Shown: piece after piece, positions 11,442 to 18,046 of the stretch | Numbering within the stretch: position 1 is the first letter of the stretch | Layout of the letters: each line of letters starts with the position of its first letter | Assembly: GCA_037445735.1 (NCBI GenBank) | Contig: JBBIJY010000026.1 | Coordinates: forward strand, 1 to 21,115 | Reading direction: 5' to 3' | From: Armatimonadota bacterium | GTDB lineage: Bacteria; Armatimonadota; Fimbriimonadia; Fimbriimonadales; GBS-DC | DNA: 21,115 nt | Notes under the pieces: generated by a model | Seen by the model: the letters and a program-made list of their open reading frames with translations, nothing else | Database searches by the model: none | Told to the model about the DNA's origin: nothing | Made by a program: the position numbers and the translations under genes

Positions 11442-12179
11442 ATGGGTAATGTTCTCAAAATCGGAGGGCTATCAGCCCTGTTTTTAAGTCTAATCGTTAG
11501 TGCTGTTGCACAAAGAACTATTCGATACACCGTTAAGGAGGGCGATTCGCTCTATGCGATTGCTCACCGTTTCGGGTTGCGACTGCCTGAGCTGCTGCGG
11601 GTCAACAAGTTCCGCAACCCGCACAAAATCAAACCGGGCGATGTGGTCTACATCCCGGTGAAGGGTGCGTCGGCAAGCGGTAAGCGATCATCATCGGTGC
11701 GCCCTGCGAATGGGAGCCAATCGTCGGGTGTCAGGCAGTCGGTATCGAGGCGCAACCCGTCGCGGACAGCGGCGCTGACGGCGTTGAAGGGCAACAGTGG
11801 GCTAAGCCCAACGGCGCGGCGCGTGCTGGAAATCGCCCACCGCTATCTGGGGCGACCCTATCGCTACGGTGGCAGCAGCTCGCGCGGGTTCGATTGTTCG
11901 GGCTTCGCGCTGCATGTCTATCGCAGTGTGGGTGTCCGCCTGCCACACAGCGCGAGTGCCCAGGCACGGCTGGGTAAACCTGTACCCCGCAGCCAGCTGC
12001 AGCCGGGCGACCTGGTCTTTTTCCGCACGCGCGGGCGTCGCATCTCGCATGTGGGTATCTACATCGGCAACGGCAGGTTTATTCACGCCTCCAGCGCGCG
12101 CGGGCGCGTGCGAATCGACTCGCTGAACACAGGCTACTACCAGCGGCGCTATGTGTGCGCTCGCCGCATCAGCCGCTAA
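11442..12179 (+). CDS. LysM + NlpC/P60 peptidoglycan endopeptidase (secreted)
   Basis: Signal peptide, then LysM YTVKEGDSLYAIAHRFG...IKPGDVVYIP, a Ser/Arg linker, and NlpC/P60 LGRPYRYGG...GFDCSG...LQPGDLVFF...SHVGIYIGNGRFIHASS. GGAGG RBS. Confidence 0.95.
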   Translation: MGNVLKIGGLSALFLSLIVSAVAQRTIRYTVKEGDSLYAIAHRFGLRLPELLRVNKFRNPHKIKPGDVVYIPVKGASASGKRSSSVRPANGSQSSGVRQSVSRRNPSRTAALTALKGNSGLSPTARRVLEIAHRYLGRPYRYGGSSSRGFDCSGFALHVYRSVGVRLPHSASAQARLGKPVPRSQLQPGDLVFFRTRGRRISHVGIYIGNGRFIHASSARGRVRIDSLNTGYYQRRYVCARRISR

Positions 12180-12214
12180 GTCGATTCGTTTCGTTAAATG
12201 CCTTCCAGACAGCA

Positions 12215-12244
12215 AGCGGGCTGGGTCAGTTGACCCAGCCCGCT
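12215..12244. terminator. Inverted repeat between convergent genes (probable bidirectional terminator)
   Basis: AGCGGGCTGGGTCA-GT-TGACCCAGCCCGCT, 14-bp arms, between the NlpC/P60 and clpC stops. U-tracts are weak. Confidence 0.6.
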
Positions 12245-12282
12245 GTTGATTCAGCGATTCACACGGGCAGCAGCCCTGTGCT

Positions 12283-14775
12283 TCAATGCGCGACGGCAGG
12301 GGCGCTCAGGTCGCTCTCGTCGTCGGGCAGTGGTGGCTCGCCCTTCACGAACACGATCTCACCCGCGTCGTTGAGCCGGGCGATAATCGTGTCGCCCTCT
12401 TCGAACCGACCCAGCAGCAGCTGCTCGGAGAGCGGGTCTTCAATCATCTGCTGAACCACGCGCCGCAGCGGGCGCGCGCCGAAGTTCGGGTCATAGCCCT
12501 TCTCGGCAAGCAGCTCTTTGACCGCCGGCTCCAGAATGAGCTGCATCCGATGCGTGCGCAGCTGCTCCTGAACCCGCCCGACCATCAGATCCACAATCTG
12601 CAGAATTTCCTCGCGCGTGAGCGGGTGGAACACAATCACCTCATCCACGCGATTGAGGAACTCCGGGCGGAACAGCTTTTTCATCTCGTCCAGAATGCGG
12701 TTGCGCATCGCTTCGTAGGCGCGCGGGTCTTCGGGTGAGGTGCGGCTCTTGCGGAAGCCGACGCCGCCCTCTTCCATGATGGAGCGCACGCCCACATTGC
12801 TGGTCATGATGATAATCGTGTTGCGGAAGTCGACCGTGTGCCCCTGCGAGTCGGTCAGTCGTCCGTCCTCCATCACCTGCAGCAGCAGGTTGAACACATC
12901 GGGGTGCGCCTTCTCGATCTCGTCGAGCAGCACCACGCTGTAGGGCTGGCGGCGCACCGCCTCGGTCAGCACGCCACCCTCCTCGTAGCCGACATAGCCG
13001 GGCGGCGCACCGATCAGGCGCGAGACATTGAACCGCTCCATGTACTCGCTCATGTCGATGCGGATGAGGTTGTTCTCGTTATCGAACAGGTAGGCGGCGA
13101 GTGCGCGTGCCAGCTCGGTCTTGCCGACACCAGTGGGTCCGAGGAAGATGAAGGTGCCCATCGGGCGCTTCGGGTCTTTGAGACCGGAGCGGGCGCGGCG
13201 CAGGGCGCGTGCCACCGCCGACACCGCCTCATGCTGACCGATCACGCGCTTGTGCAGCTCCTCTTCGATGCGCAGCAGCTTCTCGGTCTCGCCCTCCACC
13301 AGGCGGGCAACCGGGATGCCGGTCCAGCTCTGCACAATCTGCGCCACATCGTGTTCGGTCACGAGCGTGGTCATCTCGTGGCGCTGGGCTTCCCATTCCT
13401 CTTCCATGCGGTCGATATCAGCTAACAGCTCGCGACGACGCTCCTCGAGCTCTTCCGCCTGTTCGTACTTGCCTTGCTGTTTGAGGCTCTGGATGTCCTT
13501 ATCGAGCATTTCGAGCTTGCCTTTGGCGCGGCGCAGCTCCAGCGGCGGCAGCGATTGCTGAAGACGCACGCGCGACGAGGCTTCGTCTATCAGGTCGATG
13601 GCCTTGTCGGGCAGGAATCGGTCGTTGATGTAGCGCGAGGAGAGCCGCACGGCGGCTTCAATCGCGCTATCGGTGATAATCACGCGGTGGTGCGATTCGT
13701 AGCGGTCGCGCAGCCCCTTGAGAATCTCGATCGCCTCTTCGGGGGTTGGCTCGCGCACCTGAACGGGCTGGAATCGTCGCTCCAGCGCGGCGTCCCGCTC
13801 GATATATTTGCGATATTCGTCCATTGTGGTGGCGCCGATGCACTGCAGTTCGCCGCGTGCGAGAGCGGGCTTCATGATGTTGGAGGCGTCGATAGCGCCT
13901 TCGGCGGCGCCGGCGCCCACCAGCGTGTGCAGCTCATCCACAAACAGCACCACTTCGCCCTGCGCCTTGCGCACTTCTTCCAGCACGCGCTTCATGCGCT
14001 CTTCGAACTCGCCGCGATATTTGGTGCCAGCGACCAGCCCCGCCAGATCGAGCGACACGATGCGCTTGTTTTTGAGCGCGTCGGGCACATCGCCCTGCAC
14101 AATGCGTTGTGCCAGCCCTTCCACGATTGCCGTCTTGCCAACGCCTGGCGGACCGACCAGCACGGGATTGTTCTTGGTGCGGCGTGCCAGAATCTGCATC
14201 ACGCGCTCCACTTCGGTATGGCGTCCGATCACGGGGTCCAGCTTGCCCTGGCGAGCGAGTTCGGTCAGGTCGCGCCCGAACTCATCGAGGGTGGGCGTGC
14301 GGGAGCGTTGGGCGCGTGGTGTTGGCGCGGAGTGCCCCTCGTGATCCTGCAGCTGGAGCACCTCACGGCGGGCACGCTCCAGATCGACGCCCAGCTTGTG
14401 CAGCACTCGTGCCGCCAGCCCGTCACCTTCGCGAATCAGCCCCAGCAGCAGATGCTCGGTGCCGATGTAGTTGTTGTTCAGCTGGCGTGCCTCGTCGTAG
14501 GCAAGGTCAATCACGCGCTTGGCGCGCGCCGTCAGTTGCATCTCCTGTCCCAGTCGGGCATCGCCGCGCGGCGCGTAGCGCTCGATCTCGGCGCGAATGC
14601 GCTGCGGGCTAACGCCCAGCCGGTCGAGAATGCGGGCGGCAACGCTATCCGTCTCGCGGATAAGTCCCAGCAGCAGGTGTTCGGTGCTGACCTGCGATTC
14701 GCCCAGTCGCTGCGCTTCCTCCTGCGCGTAGAAGATGACCTTCCGCGCGCGCTCCGTAAATCGCTGCCACATCAT
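12283..14775 (-). CDS. clpC: ATP-dependent Clp protease ATP-binding subunit ClpC
   Basis: Double Clp-N repeat. D1: [30 protein letters not shown]. Short UVR-type M domain. D2: [29 protein letters not shown] ClpP-docking loop. Start set at ATG 14775 after the GGAGG RBS. Confidence 0.96.
14399..14774. repeat. Direct repeat copy 1: 376 bp identical to 16056-16431 (Clp-N coding region)
   Basis: Base-by-base visual comparison found no mismatch. About 20 further nt to the left align with 3 mismatches. Confidence 0.9.
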
Positions 14776-14825
14776 TCTCGACCCTCCATCGCGGCGCAAC
14801 CGCCGTACTGATAGATTGTTTCCAT
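14772..14825 (-). CDS. Putative leader peptide [17 protein letters not shown] upstream of clpC
   Basis: GGAGGT 3 nt before ATG 14825. The TGA stop overlaps the clpC start (ATGATG). Confidence 0.3.
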   Translation of the reverse strand: METIYQYGGCAAMEGRE

Positions 14826-14909
14826 ACGACCTCCGTTATTTTCTCTGGGGAATCGGCTCCCATGCCCTATTATCGGGAAAGTGCCTGCATGGGTTCCCTC
14901 CCCACCTAT

Positions 14910-14918
14910 ATTGTAGCA
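14910..14918 (-). promoter_or_regulatory. Extended -10 element (TGcTACAAT) for clpC
   Basis: Plus-strand attgtagca in the intergenic region between the paralogue and clpC. Confidence 0.5.
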
Positions 14919-14935
14919 CATGGCGGGGCTAAAAA

Positions 14936-16432
14936 TCAAGGGGCGTCCGCCATGAGCTGCTCGATCGGGATGCCTGTCCACTCGTGGAGCTGTTCGGCGA
15001 CATGCTGCGGGGTGAGCGTCGTTGGCGGCTCCTGCTCCGCCTCCAGATGCTGAATGAGCTGCCGCACGCGCTGCTTCTGCTCCTCCAGCAACTGAGCCAT
15101 CTGCTGCGATTCGGGCTGAGCCTGCTGGAGCTGTTCCAGCAGCTGGCGCAGATAGTGCAATTGTTCCTCTTTGCGCAGGCGCGTCGGTTGACCCTCTTCT
15201 GCCAGCCGCTGGTAATATTCGGGCGGAAGCAGGGTCGAACGGAGGCTCACCCGTGCGACCGCCGATTCCAGCAGGTCGATGGCTTTATCGGGCAGGCGGC
15301 GGTCGGGCAGGTAGCGCATCGATAGCTGCACGGCTTTCTCGATGGCTTCATCGGTAATCTGCAAACCTGACTGCTGATGGAGCAGGTGGCGTCGTCGATG
15401 CAGCATCCGGATAACCGCTTCGGGCGTCGGCTCGCCAATCGGTACCTTCTCAAACAGCGACTGCAGCTGTGCCAGCCGCTCGCTGTCGTGCGGACTGCCT
15501 GTGTTGTACACACCGATACAGCGCACACCGCCGATATTCAGCACCTGCTTCAGCGCGTGCAGCGGCTCAACGGGTGATGTTCGCGAGCCGAGGTCAAACA
15601 GGCTCTCCAGATCATCGATAAACAGAATCAACCGGTCAGCTATGCGATGCAGCTCGTTCACAAATCGCGCGGCGATGCTGACCGACGCCATTTGCCACAT
15701 CAGCACATCGGGCGGGAGCGCGACCACCTGCACGCCCTTAAGCGGTTCAGGCGGCTCGCCGTACACCAGCACATTCACCACGCCATGCACAATCGTGGTC
15801 TTGCCGACGCCGCGCTCGCCAACCAGCAACGGGTTGCGACGGTTGAGCTTCGCAAGGATTTGCAGCACGGTGTAGATTTCGGCATCGCGCTCGTAGGCGG
15901 TGCCCAGCTTGCGTTCGAACGCCAGCCGATTCATGTCCTGCCCCAGCTCGTGGATCAGCGACGGGCGAGCTTCGGGTGCGGGGACAACCTCGGCAGGTTG
16001 ATCCTGAATCTGCCTCACCTCGTTTCGTGCCCGCCCCAGATCGACGCCTAACTTATGCAGCACTCGTGCCGCCAGCCCGTCACCTTCGCGAATCAGCCCC
16101 AGCAGCAGATGCTCGGTGCCGATGTAGTTGTTGTTCAGCTGGCGTGCCTCGTCGTAGGCAAGGTCAATCACGCGCTTGGCGCGCGCCGTCAGTTGCATCT
16201 CCTGTCCCAGTCGGGCATCGCCGCGCGGCGCGTAGCGCTCGATCTCGGCGCGAATGCGCTGCGGGCTAACGCCCAGCCGGTCGAGAATGCGGGCGGCAAC
16301 GCTATCCGTCTCGCGGATAAGTCCCAGCAGCAGGTGTTCGGTGCTGACCTGCGATTCGCCCAGTCGCTGCGCTTCCTCCTGCGCGTAGAAGATGACCTTC
16401 CGCGCGCGCTCCGTAAATCGCTGCCACATCAC
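14936..16432 (-). CDS. Truncated ClpC paralogue: Clp-N domain + degenerate AAA (D1) + coiled coil, no D2
   Basis: The first ~130 aa are identical to ClpC. Walker A GERGVGKT is kept, but Walker B reads FIDDLE, the pore loop is absent and the Arg finger ALERRF is replaced by [21 protein letters not shown] is kept. Ends at WTGIP...MADAP, before D2. Confidence 0.88.
   Translation of the reverse strand: MMWQRFTERARKVIFYAQEEAQRLGESQVSTEHLLLGLIRETDSVAARILDRLGVSPQRIRAEIERYAPRGDARLGQEMQLTARAKRVIDLAYDEARQLNNNYIGTEHLLLGLIREGDGLAARVLHKLGVDLGRARNEVRQIQDQPAEVVPAPEARPSLIHELGQDMNRLAFERKLGTAYERDAEIYTVLQILAKLNRRNPLLVGERGVGKTTIVHGVVNVLVYGEPPEPLKGVQVVALPPDVLMWQMASVSIAARFVNELHRIADRLILFIDDLESLFDLGSRTSPVEPLHALKQVLNIGGVRCIGVYNTGSPHDSERLAQLQSLFEKVPIGEPTPEAVIRMLHRRRHLLHQQSGLQITDEAIEKAVQLSMRYLPDRRLPDKAIDLLESAVARVSLRSTLLPPEYYQRLAEEGQPTRLRKEEQLHYLRQLLEQLQQAQPESQQMAQLLEEQKQRVRQLIQHLEAEQEPPTTLTPQHVAEQLHEWTGIPIEQLMADAP
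16056..16431. repeat. Direct repeat copy 2: 376 bp identical to 14399-14774
   Basis: Offset 1657 bp. Identity ends exactly at the start codon (GTG vs ATG). Confidence 0.9.
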
Positions 16433-16459
16433 GAATGATCTCCCCGCTTCCTTTGACCG

Positions 16460-16467
16460 ATTCTACC
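16460..16467 (-). promoter_or_regulatory. -10 element GGTAGAAT upstream of the clpC paralogue
   Basis: Plus-strand attctacc, followed on the minus strand by a GGAG RBS and GTG 16432. Confidence 0.45.
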
Positions 16468-16561
16468 GCTGGCGAGTTTCTCATTCTATCGCCTTCCAGA
16501 GGCACTTAAGCAGGATTCGCACTTGCTCCTGCGAACCGAAATACTCACAGGAGGTACTGAC

Positions 16562-16839
16562 ATGTCGAACGGAAGCAGCTCGAATGCAACTCTGATACTG
16601 GTGCTGGGTATTTTGAGCCTGGTCTGCTGCGGGCTTCTTGGACCCGTGGCATGGATTATGGGCAACAACGCGTTGCGTGAGATTGATGCGGGCATCGGCA
16701 ACCCCAGCGATCGAGGGCTGGTCGTGCAGGTCGCATTCTGGGAATCATCGCCACCGTGTTGATGATTCTGGGAATTGTCGTTTATGGAGCGCTGTTCATG
16801 CTCGGTATGCTGGGAGGGATGGTAGGGGGTTTGCCGTAG
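16562..16839 (+). pseudogene. DUF4190-like small membrane protein, frameshifted (1-nt deletion near 16726)
   Basis: AGGAGGT RBS, then MSNGSSSNATLILVLGILSLVCCGLLGPVAWIMGNNALREID...RGLV. The shifted frame continues AGRILGIIATVLMILGIVVYGALFMLGMLGGMVGGLP* to TAG 16839. Total 278 nt = 93 codons minus 1 nt. Confidence 0.75.
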
Positions 16840-16924
16840 TGCGGGTAAGGTTCCGCTTGCCATCTGATCTTCTCTGCCCGAAAGGGAGCATACCCCTTTG
16901 CAGGGGGTATTCTATTGGGTCAGG

Positions 16925-18046
16925 ATGGATACGGCACGGGAGCGGTTGCCGGCGGAGGTGCGCGCGCTGTGGGTGGTGCGCACCTCGATGGTTTCGCCGC
17001 AGGCGATTGAGCGTGTGGTGGAGCTATCGCGGGCGTATGGGTTCAACACGCTGTTTGTGCAGGTACGCGGGCGGGGCGACGCCTACTATCGCTCCAGCTA
17101 CGAGCCGCGCGCGGAGGCGCTGGCGAATCAGCCCGCCAGCTTCGACCCGCTCGGCTACCTGCTGGAGCGAGCGAAGGCGGCGGGGCTGATGGTGCATGCG
17201 TGGCTGAATGTCTATTATGTCTGGAGCCGCCCGCAGCCGCCGCGCAGCCCCCTGCATGTGGTCAGCCGCGCGAGCCGCTGGATCGCCCGCGACGGACGCA
17301 ACCGCTATCAGATGACCACTGCTGGGCGCGTGGAGGGCGTCTACCTGTGCCCCAGCAATCCCGATGTGCGGGCGCACCTGCTCCAGGTGTTCGCCGAGGT
17401 CGCCCGCAACTACCCCACGCTGGACGGCATCCATCTCGACTATGTGCGCTACCCTTACGAAGGCTACTGCTATTGCGAAGGTTGTCGCGCCCGATTCCGC
17501 GCCTCAATCGCTCCGCAGGTGAGCGAACAGCGACGGCGCGAGTTGGACCGCAAGGCGCTGCGTAATCCGCTGGCGTGGACACAGGCGTTCCCCGCTGAAT
17601 GGAGCGAGTGGCGCCGCGAGCAGGTGGACGCCTTCGTGAAAGCCTTCGCCCAGCAAACCCGCCAGATCCATCCCAGCCTGATTCTGTCGGCGGCGGTCTA
17701 TCCCAACCCGCTCAGCGCGTATCGGCGCAAACTGCAGAACTGGACGCTCTGGCTGCGCCGCGACTGGCTGGACACCGTGCTGCCGATGGCGTATGACACC
17801 GACACGGGCGCGGTCATCCGCCAGATCCAGCTGGCGTTGCAGGCGGCGGCAGGTCGCCCCGTGATTGGGGGCATCGGCGCGTGGCGAATCACACCCGAAA
17901 GCACCATCAACAAAATCCGCGCCATGCGACGGCTCGGCACGCGCGGATTCTGCCTCTTCTCCTACGATGTGATCACCCGCTACGGCGCCAGCGAGGACTA
18001 TCTGAGCCAGATTGCTTCGGTGGTGAACGACGCAAACCGCGCCTGA
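16925..18046 (+). CDS. Glycosyl hydrolase-like family 10 (GHL10/DUF187, YddW-like) protein
   Basis: EVRALWV, FNTLFVQVRGRGDAYY, FDPL, VHAWLN, DGIHLDYVRYP and PMAY. Start placed at ATG 16925 (GGTATTCT 11 nt upstream); TTG 16898 is an alternative. Confidence 0.85.
   Translation: MDTARERLPAEVRALWVVRTSMVSPQAIERVVELSRAYGFNTLFVQVRGRGDAYYRSSYEPRAEALANQPASFDPLGYLLERAKAAGLMVHAWLNVYYVWSRPQPPRSPLHVVSRASRWIARDGRNRYQMTTAGRVEGVYLCPSNPDVRAHLLQVFAEVARNYPTLDGIHLDYVRYPYEGYCYCEGCRARFRASIAPQVSEQRRRELDRKALRNPLAWTQAFPAEWSEWRREQVDAFVKAFAQQTRQIHPSLILSAAVYPNPLSAYRRKLQNWTLWLRRDWLDTVLPMAYDTDTGAVIRQIQLALQAAAGRPVIGGIGAWRITPESTINKIRAMRRLGTRGFCLFSYDVITRYGASEDYLSQIASVVNDANRA

Follow-up and report, generated by a model that had tools for sequence, protein, structure and literature searches.

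What role could a shortened and degenerate copy of the unfoldase gene clpC have when it lies directly beside the intact gene? This question is raised by a stretch of 21,115 nucleotides (nt) from an Armatimonadota bacterium of the order Fimbriimonadales (assembly GCA_037445735.1, contig JBBIJY010000026.1), referred to here in its whole length as the window; the genome it belongs to is G000. On the minus strand of the window an uninterrupted open reading frame (ORF) of 498 amino acids (aa) occupies positions 14936-16432 and starts with GTG at 16432, or with ATG at 16429 to give 497 aa. It is located on the upstream side of clpC on the same strand (12283-14775), which is intact and encodes 830 aa from a double start ATG ATG or 838 aa from a TTG at 14799. 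The gap between the two genes comprises 160 nt. Both frames were found where an earlier note, made from the letters alone, had placed an uninterrupted ORF directly upstream of an intact clpC. Our preferred reading, to which we assign a probability of roughly 45% from sequence comparison, is that the short protein (the paralogue) is a functional, lineage-restricted derivative of ClpC that would bind nucleotide, would not thread substrates and would buffer, or compete for, the ligands of the ClpC N-domain.

Pfam recognizes two Clp_N repeats (132 bits) and AAA_lid_9 (62.6 bits) in the paralogue, and the match to AAA is weak (25.7 bits at a cut-off of 21.2, compared to 91.8 bits for D1 of ClpC). 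No Pfam match to AAA_2 or ClpB_D2-small was obtained in the paralogue, leaving it with a single AAA+ module. The neighboring ClpC shows two Clp_N repeats, AAA, AAA_lid_9, AAA_2 and ClpB_D2-small, with a GVGF loop in D2. By the NCBIfam models for ClpB, ClpA, ClpK, ClpG and ClpV the paralogue stays far under the cut-offs, the best score being 215 bits vs 1232. An AlphaFold model built on a 7-row alignment (mean predicted local distance difference test, pLDDT, 79; predicted template modelling score, pTM, 0.53) displays an N-domain, a five-stranded AAA+ core, a lid and a helical hairpin. The best Foldseek matches of this model are ClpC chains, including ClpC(1-485) in complex with MecA (3pxg) at rank 9 with an E-value of 8.9e-25.

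Conservation was assessed in an alignment of 11 family members from 6 lineages. Length, end point and the pattern of kept and lost motifs are common to all 11. Invariant throughout are G205 and G208-T212 of Walker A, the Walker B aspartate D273, E276, N310-T311, R182 within an ERD motif and the LPxKAxDL motif (L380-P381-x-K383-A384-x-D386-L387). The motifs AYERDAEIY, DDLExLF and YNTG are likewise invariant in the family and absent from ClpC, and the ClpC-invariant D1 motifs GAGxxxG and LKPxLARGE are lost. Walker B changes from FVDELH in ClpC to FIDDLE in the paralogue, the residue after D273 being Asp in 10 members and Asn in one. In all members the pore loop KYRGEFE has given way to a sequence that is without Tyr and leaves a 4-residue gap in the alignment, and neither Arg finger remains (LERRF to LQSLF in the window, LxxLF in 11/11). 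At the sensor-1 position ClpC has the invariant Thr T317, and every paralogue has Asn at N310. Asn is the usual AAA+ sensor-1 residue; sensor 1 is therefore changed rather than lost. The C-terminus WTGIPIEQLMADAP falls where D2 of ClpC starts, so that there is no ClpP-docking loop; all members terminate right after WTGIP(I/V)(E/D)Q, and the window protein ends with WTGIPIEQL. Furthermore, the acidic D1 pair D357/E360 of the window's ClpC (D356/E359 in S. aureus) is H349/H352 in the paralogue, and these positions are non-acidic in 6/6 paralogue lineages (H or P, then H, Q, S or Y). No aromatic residue is aligned with the coil tip F436 of S. aureus (Y437 of the window's ClpC), an assignment that is tentative at the low identity of the coil alignment. 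The M-like coil of the window copy contains a 12-aa insertion shared only by the copy of genome G011.

Nucleotide binding is probably kept by the paralogue, because the pocket motifs are invariant and D1 is under purifying selection (see below). Since the protein has neither D2 nor a ClpP loop and is also devoid of the Walker B Glu, the pore-loop Tyr and the Arg fingers, its sequence excludes a ClpC-type unfoldase coupled to ClpP. With this the alignments agree with most of what the earlier note had read from a single copy: Walker A is retained, pore loop, Arg finger and Walker B Glu are lost, the protein stops before D2 and the ClpP-docking loop, and neither unfolding nor recruitment of ClpP would be expected. 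Its statement that sensor 1 is lost was wrong, N310 being altered and invariant. Its wording of a dead AAA ring goes too far, given the invariant Walker A, Walker B Asp, sensor-1 Asn and LPxKAxDL motif and the selection acting on D1.

The N-terminal part behaves differently from the rest of the protein. According to BLASTP the paralogue and ClpC are identical over aa 1-132 with the first mismatch at residue 133, and drop to about 35% identity thereafter (overall 51%, 257/508). In the coding sequences nt 2-377 are identical (376 nt), after which the match collapses abruptly. No alignment was obtained between the 68-nt stretches that precede the two starts. The identity of the two Clp-N domains reported in the earlier note is thus exact on both levels. 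In S. aureus ClpC the ligand site comprises T7, R9, E32/E106, K85 and R122 according to an excerpt of PMC12583610; the residues aligned with T7, R9, E32, K85, E106 and R122 (phospho-arginine and anchoring sites) are invariant in 11/11 paralogues, where they are numbered T7, R9, E32, K86, E107 and R123.

We compared 378 nt of N-domain DNA between paralogues and ClpCs of several lineages. The paralogue of G000 is 99.2% identical to its own ClpC, 96.6% to ClpC of the sister species G002 and at most 84.1% to those of other lineages, the ClpC N-domains of G002 and G000 being 95.8% identical to each other. For G001 the values are 86.2% to its own ClpC and at most 83.3% to any other ClpC or paralogue, for G011 84.4% and at most 74.9%, and for the metagenome lineages mgB and mgC 89.4% and at most 88.4%, and 88.1% and at most 86.0%, respectively. 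The number of synonymous substitutions per site (dS) in the N-domain is 0.03, 0.54 and 0.48 within a genome and 0.9-2.0 between genomes. The longest exact runs shared by paralogue and ClpC comprise 371 nt (G000), 119 nt (G001) and 88 nt (mgB). No exact run of 25 nt or more is shared by non-cognate pairs among G000, G001 and G011, and among close metagenome lineages such runs reach up to 57 nt. Identity between paralogue and ClpC drops near nt 420 in every pair, and in the metagenome locus L095 an unusual VGPEHLLL is present in both genes. Since each N-domain is nearest to the ClpC of its own genome, these comparisons indicate that the N-domain of the paralogue has repeatedly been gene-converted with the resident clpC. 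Such concerted evolution is consistent with selection that keeps the recognition domain matched, and is no proof of it.

An exact repeat of 376 nt in a metagenome-assembled genome is a classic risk, and a chimeric or collapsed assembly could by itself produce an identical N-domain. We looked at run X1, a subsurface metagenome by its label, in which 0.97 of the sampled words are present and which is possibly the sample of origin. Those of its contigs that match the window with 0 differences reach 30 nt into the repeat and end there, at each of the four repeat borders (records 5, 6 and 8), and record 6 bridges positions 14745-16085, a stretch that includes the spacer and all of the paralogue's unique sequence. 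Contig ends at the repeat borders together with a bridging record are the pattern expected of a real exact repeat. One X1 contig carries a synonymous G>A at 14706, a point on the side of an artefact, so that a difference of about one base between the two N-domain copies is possible. Against an artefact, the same paralogue protein is also encoded on a second contig of 35,854 nt, and the same tandem pair occurs in G001 and in 6 metagenome loci, so that we regard this explanation as very improbable.

A search with the divergent part (residues 145-498) against 5.8 billion proteins returned five clusters at 305-764 bits with 491-504 aa and 64 member sequences, followed by ordinary ClpC at no more than 167 bits. 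When the whole protein was searched against 1.84 billion representatives, P0003 was the only full-length relative to be matched in one stretch. Within the order the gene is present in 3/228 species genomes (3/170 of high quality, 2/68 genera), and all three carriers, G000, G001 and G011, belong to the window's own family. A DNA-pattern scan of metagenomes gave 8 loci, 7 of which encode the paralogue; clpC follows on the same strand in 6 of the 7, and in the seventh the contig stops inside the gene. Including G000 and G001, the paralogue is in tandem with clpC in 8/9 loci with a readable downstream side. Four of the metagenome loci are near-identical, which reduces the independent count to 5 tandem lineages plus G011. 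All 9 loci and all 5 protein clusters have open frames. The closest named ClpC relatives are 85-88% identical and labelled Fimbriimonadales or Armatimonadota. A profile of the D1-M part, run against genome contigs and dominated by the GVGKT pattern, gave 34 loci and no orthologue, the hits being ordinary Clp proteins at 24-33% and one 48-residue match at 49%. Only generic AAA and AAA_lid_9 clusters were returned in a protein-cluster search with residues 146-498.

The phylogenetic tree joins the paralogues in a single clade (100/100) at the end of a very long branch; the analysis warned of long-branch joins, and the ClpB of the own genome was oddly placed. For D1-M the copies of G000 and G011 group together (100/98) with G001 basal, which conflicts with the ClpC tree. 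The G011 copy (L079 9313-10785; also L005) is located apart from clpC, by eye between a gene for an AAA_14/DUF4143-like ATPase and two Uma2-like genes. This different location and the tree conflict suggest that the paralogue was transferred to G011 and its N-domain then converted to ClpC of the new host. In a separate comparison of L093 with L096, L099 and L100 the paralogues differ by a dS of 0.02 and the adjacent clpC D1-M parts by a dS of 0.62 and a dN (nonsynonymous substitutions per site) of 0.09, which points to recombination mosaics at this locus.

Selection on the degenerate part was estimated from Nei-Gojobori counts, with mgA, mgB and mgC as unsaturated pairs (dS 0.49-0.87). In these pairs dN/dS of D1-M is 0.13-0.19 for the paralogue and 0.045-0.068 for ClpC, and that of the D1 large subdomain 0.10-0.16 and 0.010-0.020, respectively. 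The N-domain of the paralogue has values of 0.03-0.20. Saturation (dS 1.3-2.4) affects the distant pairs, in which D1-M comes out at 0.26-0.38. Because of the values of 0.13-0.19 in unsaturated pairs, D1-M is judged to be under purifying selection. The earlier note had proposed to look for the same gene pair in relatives and had named stops in the relatives' copies or a dN/dS of about 1 as evidence against a function. The pair was found in 8/9 readable loci, every copy has an open frame, and the ratio is well below 1.

In the 12000-17000 interval of the window only one promoter-like site was called, TTGATT-18-TACAAT with a TG element at 14939..14910, upstream of clpC, and no terminator-like site was found there on the minus strand. 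This points to an own promoter of clpC, and read-through from the paralogue is therefore possible. The spacer is strongly conserved, including in G011 and G002, and the region upstream of the paralogue is not. The earlier note had assigned the paralogue an own ribosome-binding site and -10 box: a GGGGAG does precede the GTG by 7 nt and TAGAAT can be read twice, but no full promoter was called upstream of the paralogue by the consensus scan. Control of the paralogue by a CtsR-type repressor was considered and dismissed, as there is a single good heptad, GGTCAAA, in a region that is unconserved.

According to our preferred reading the paralogue would bind nucleotide with little or no hydrolysis and would neither thread substrates nor feed ClpP. 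Its N-domain would bind what ClpC binds: phospho-arginine-marked proteins, adaptors and N-domain-targeting peptides. The genome encodes an McsB-like guanidino kinase, a potential source of phospho-arginine marks, and one ClpP; no Pfam match to MecA was found in it. Besides clpC and the paralogue, a ClpB-like gene is the only one in the genome with a Clp_N domain. ClpC is restrained by its own N-domain and switched on by binders such as adaptors, phospho-arginine-marked proteins and toxic peptides, and its uncontrolled activation is lethal, as stated in excerpts of PMC12583610. The paralogue would then act as a non-degrading competitor or buffer which limits the ligand that reaches and activates ClpCP. 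Its N-domain would probably always be exposed, because the D1 acidic residues that dock the N-domain of resting-state ClpC are missing. The nucleotide-bound D1-M body may set its state or valency, possibly as an oligomer. The level of the paralogue may follow transcription of clpC owing to its upstream position and the lack of a terminator-like site between the genes, though clpC also has its own putative promoter. A bolder version, which we consider doubtful, would make the paralogue a pseudo-unfoldase devoted to the machine it derives from, the first of this kind among bacterial Hsp100 proteins: an ATP-locked oligomer or ClpC-capping subunit that shows ClpC-identical N-domains and serves as a natural substrate trap or anti-activator for phospho-arginine and ClpCP, gene conversion matching the recognition domain even after transfer, as in G011.

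Several observations weigh against a buffering function. The paralogue is dispensable in nature: absence in relatives, listed by the earlier note as a possible refutation, applies to 225 of the order's 228 genomes, the three carriers standing on the other side, and extends to the nearest species genome. This genome, G002, with 94-96% DNA identity, lacks exactly positions 14949-16498 (1550 nt) and has 9 other letters at the joint (L081 6938-6948); the same joint was found in one contig each of runs X2 and X3 at depths of 11.5 and 22.5. As G002 keeps the last 13 nt of the paralogue ORF and the entire clpC spacer including the promoter-like site, its state is read as a deletion of the paralogue. 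A repeat-mediated deletion was rejected, since what is missing does not correspond to one repeat unit and the spacer on the clpC side survives. In samples of one study both gene states are present, X1 with the paralogue and X2 and X3 with a sister population without it. In addition, D1-M is constrained 3-4 times less strongly in the paralogue than in ClpC. Conversion could also continue merely because the copies stay similar, giving concerted evolution without selection for identity. A pure N-domain sponge would need neither D1 nor M, yet both are conserved; the body is therefore expected to do something beyond the buffer model. Finally, residual hydrolysis could proceed via D274 (Asp in 10/11) or the invariant E276, and relocated catalytic residues are a feature that pseudoenzymes may have, according to the excerpted text of PMC10211241.

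Conservation of the body leads to the main rival, which we hold to be unlikely, though less so than the others: the paralogue would join ClpC via D1 and add subunits without D2, pore loop and Arg finger to the ring or to the spirals of the resting state, thereby lowering or retuning the activity of the hexamer. The kept D1 core fold and nucleotide pocket and the tandem arrangement in 8/9 readable loci are consistent with such a role. A complex prediction of ClpC 150-497 with paralogue 146-498 and 2 ATP gave a weak pass with 0.44 vs 0.00 for the best of 3 controls; the mark used is reached by 58/80 solved complexes and 2/110 mismatched pairs, and scores of 0.60 or below were obtained by only 7 of the 80 solved complexes and by both passing mismatches. 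Runs agreed in at least 41% of the contacts with a partner pLDDT of at least 79. The pass may only mirror likeness to known structures, because ClpC rings have been solved. On the other side, the Arg fingers and most ClpC-invariant D1 motifs (GAGxxxG, LKPxLARGE) are lost, the aligned M-domain tip is without the aromatic residue on which the resting state of ClpC relies, the N-domain-anchoring acidic residues are gone, and the G011 gene lies away from clpC. Moreover, C-terminal truncations of M. tuberculosis ClpC1 lose oligomerisation, according to the excerpt of PMC3527473.

A conserved body could also serve a function that does not damp ClpC, namely as an ATP-gated scaffold, holdase or adaptor which reads phospho-arginine or other N-domain ligands, for example by protecting marked proteins or by signalling with a neighboring HD-domain protein. 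The family-invariant motifs not found in ClpC, an HD_5 gene that ends 4 nt before the paralogue ATG in metagenome lineages, and fusions of Clp_N to an O-methyltransferase, an isochorismatase-like protein and an ornithine carbamoyltransferase in relatives speak for it; by these fusions Clp_N is reused as a module in the order. However, the upstream neighbor differs between lineages and clpC is the one constant partner, and we rate this explanation as distinctly less probable than a joint hexamer. Least probable apart from an assembly artefact is a decaying duplicate without a function of its own, its frame being open by chance or through conversion by clpC. It would fit the patchy distribution, the recent deletion in the sister species and a dN/dS above that of ClpC, and the protein P0258 shows that such degenerate remnants occur. 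This is difficult to reconcile with frames that are open in 9 loci and 5 clusters across lineages with dS above 1, with the dN/dS of a D1-M part that lies outside the conversion tract, and with a length, end and motif pattern that are identical in 11/11 members.

Table 1. Features of the paralogue-clpC locus in window coordinates.
Feature	Position	Strand	Basis or remark
Short ClpC paralogue, 498 aa	14936..16432	-	stop TGA 14936-14938
Candidate gene-conversion tract, paralogue copy	16056..16431	-	376 nt = clpC 14399-14774; spans both Clp_N repeats (aa 1-126)
Candidate gene-conversion tract, clpC copy	14399..14774	-	376 nt identical
Paralogue N-domain, double Clp_N, aa 1-145	15998..16432	-	Pfam and alignment
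Paralogue degenerate D1 large subdomain, aa 176-335	15428..15907	-	alignment and AAA+ core strands in model
Paralogue Walker A, GERGVGKT	15797-15820	-	alignment
Paralogue Walker B region, ILFIDDLE	15605-15628	-	alignment
Paralogue D1 small subdomain, AAA_lid_9, aa 336-400	15233..15427	-	Pfam and alignment
Paralogue M-domain-like coiled coil and tail, aa 401-498, end WTGIPIEQLMADAP	14939..15232	-	alignment and model
Paralogue upstream region, GGGGAG and two TAGAAT boxes	16433..16562	-	unconserved between lineages
Paralogue-clpC spacer with clpC promoter-like site and conserved leader	14776..14935	-	consensus scan
17-codon upstream ORF, TGA overlapping clpC ATG ATG	14772..14825	-	sequence reading
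Intact clpC: two Clp_N, D1, M, D2 (AAA_2), D2-small, GVGF loop	12283..14775	-	Pfam and alignment

The clpC promoter-like site TTGAxT...TGTGCTACAAT and the leader of about 130 nt behind it (window 14772-14939, minus strand) are strongly conserved; L007, L008, L011, L012, L014, L017, L018, L078, L080 and L093-L095 were included in this comparison. The leader has a short hairpin with a variable loop in its middle and ends in an upstream ORF of 17-24 codons, ME[TIL]xY...[AV][LM]EGR[EA], the TGA of which overlaps the clpC start. This ORF was found in 7 of the 12 relative loci that could be examined out of 27, the remainder being too short or located on the opposite strand; these 7 all belong to the window's own family, and the 5 loci of other families are without it. 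In the metagenome lineages 43 nt of the clpC leader are duplicated. A search of Rfam over 12000-17000 with E-values up to 1 gave 0 matches, so the leader corresponds to no described RNA family.

The gene upstream of the paralogue varies: a divergent small ORF in G000, an O-methyltransferase gene in G001 and an HD_5 gene in the metagenome loci. The small ORF of the window (16523-16762, plus strand) has an AGGAGG followed by a hydrophobic stretch LILVLGILSLVCCGLLGPVAWIMG and may be cut short by a frameshift. The HD_5 gene (HD-GYP-like; L095 5311-5967, plus strand, likewise in L093 and L094) with its 4-nt distance suggests that HD gene, paralogue and clpC form one operon in the metagenome lineages. 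The O-methyltransferase gene just upstream of the paralogue in G001 is the orthologue of one that is fused to Clp_N elsewhere. Such fusions within the order, with a double Clp_N up to 80% identical to that of the window, involve an O-methyltransferase (G023), isochorismatase-like proteins (G038, G040, G031 and G034) and an ornithine carbamoyltransferase (G027), and are located at L035:1535-2722 (-), L036:1589-2680 (+) and L037:800-2281 (+) as well as in L038, L041 and L042.

A few further matches concern Clp-related genes elsewhere. The top ranks of the whole-protein search are taken by proteins consisting solely of three or four consecutive double Clp_N units, among them P0121 (665 aa), P0122 (557 aa) and many others. 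P0217 (477 aa), from another lineage, is a short N-D1-M protein with Walker B DD and a lost pore loop. P0258 (492 aa) has the same short form with the Walker A Lys replaced by Arg and the Arg fingers lost; it is a singleton on a 2.2-kb contig with ordinary Planctomycetota ClpC proteins as its nearest relatives (54% identity), and was rejected as a recurrence of the architecture in another phylum. A match on contig C95 of G003 (73% over residues 1-240) was rejected as a paralogue, as it represents the N-terminus of a ClpC truncated where the contig ends. In this genome, which belongs to the same genus, clpC is split over C95 3384-4223 and C9 1-1413 with breaks in or near the N-domain and an overlap of residues 23-260, which could reflect a repeat or a strain mixture. 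A further Hsp100-like gene is present in G001 (L040 1526-4246, contig C42) with a 907-aa frame, a long C-terminal extension and, by eye, no Clp_N; its D1 is intact (GVGKT, LFIDELHT, GATT, ALARRF). In G002 (L039 1631-3196, contig C9) the frame breaks off at 522 aa.

The kind of protein proposed here is already known, as non-catalytic look-alikes of the ClpC recognition domain. A full-text literature search, with most subscription journals outside its coverage, retrieved no description of a degenerate N-D1-M paralogue of ClpC, in line with the earlier note, which had not recognized the architecture as described. If the preferred reading is true, an unrelated phylum would have found a second, structurally different solution to buffering, which would point to a recurrent need to buffer the recognition domain of an unfoldase. 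The solution here would consist of an N-domain, a nucleotide-binding pseudo-D1 and a coiled coil, encoded beside clpC and matched to it in sequence. The paralogue would further provide a natural N-D1-M fragment for studying the contributions of D1 and the M-domain apart from threading. Gene conversion that is confined to one domain and links an essential machine with its derivative would cleanly illustrate a decoy staying matched to its target. The interest is mainly to Clp specialists, the case being built on sequences of uncultured organisms.

Among known systems, ClpC of B. subtilis and S. aureus and ClpC1 of M. tuberculosis share with the paralogue the double Clp_N, a D1 fold with Walker A, AAA_lid_9 and a short coiled-coil M-domain. 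The paralogue differs from them in having no D2, ClpP loop, pore-loop Tyr or Arg fingers and in the change of Walker B from DE to DD (or DN). Closest in the proposed role are ClpC2 and ClpC3 of mycobacteria, small, non-proteolytic partial homologues of ClpC1 that resemble its N-domain and protect it; they also present a ClpC-type ligand-binding domain. They are reported to compete for ClpC1 ligands and to act as a sponge (excerpts of PMC10030653 and PMC12678426), actinobacterial ClpC2 being called a 'molecular sponge' in the former. ClpC2 has no AAA+ module or coiled coil; in the excerpt of PMC10030653 it is self-repressing and combines an N-terminal dimerising, DNA-binding part with a C-terminal Clp-repeat. 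In the paralogue Clp_N is N-terminal and followed by AAA+ and coiled coil, the catalytic motifs are lost and inactivity is predicted from them; it thus differs from ClpC2/ClpC3 in architecture, as the earlier note had pointed out for ClpC2, and also in phylum and gene context. The plant proteins SMAX1/SMXL/D53 are of Clp/Hsp100 descent with a double Clp-N and, in the excerpts available, are regulators rather than unfoldases. Their ATPase motifs are degenerate. They differ from the paralogue in their eukaryotic origin, in having retained both nucleotide-binding-like domains, in functioning as transcriptional co-repressors and in being unlinked to a parent unfoldase gene. The engineered ClpC(1-485) crystallized with MecA (3pxg) has nearly the same domain boundaries, but it was made in the laboratory by shortening an active ClpC whose catalytic motifs are intact, whereas the paralogue is a natural gene. 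Walker B 'trap' mutants of AAA+ unfoldases, in which Walker A is intact and the catalytic Glu replaced, are a laboratory tool as well. By analogy to them, ATP would be expected to be bound by the paralogue and hardly hydrolysed. Unlike these mutants, the paralogue also lacks pore loops, Arg fingers and a second ring, and could hold its ligands only via the N-domain.

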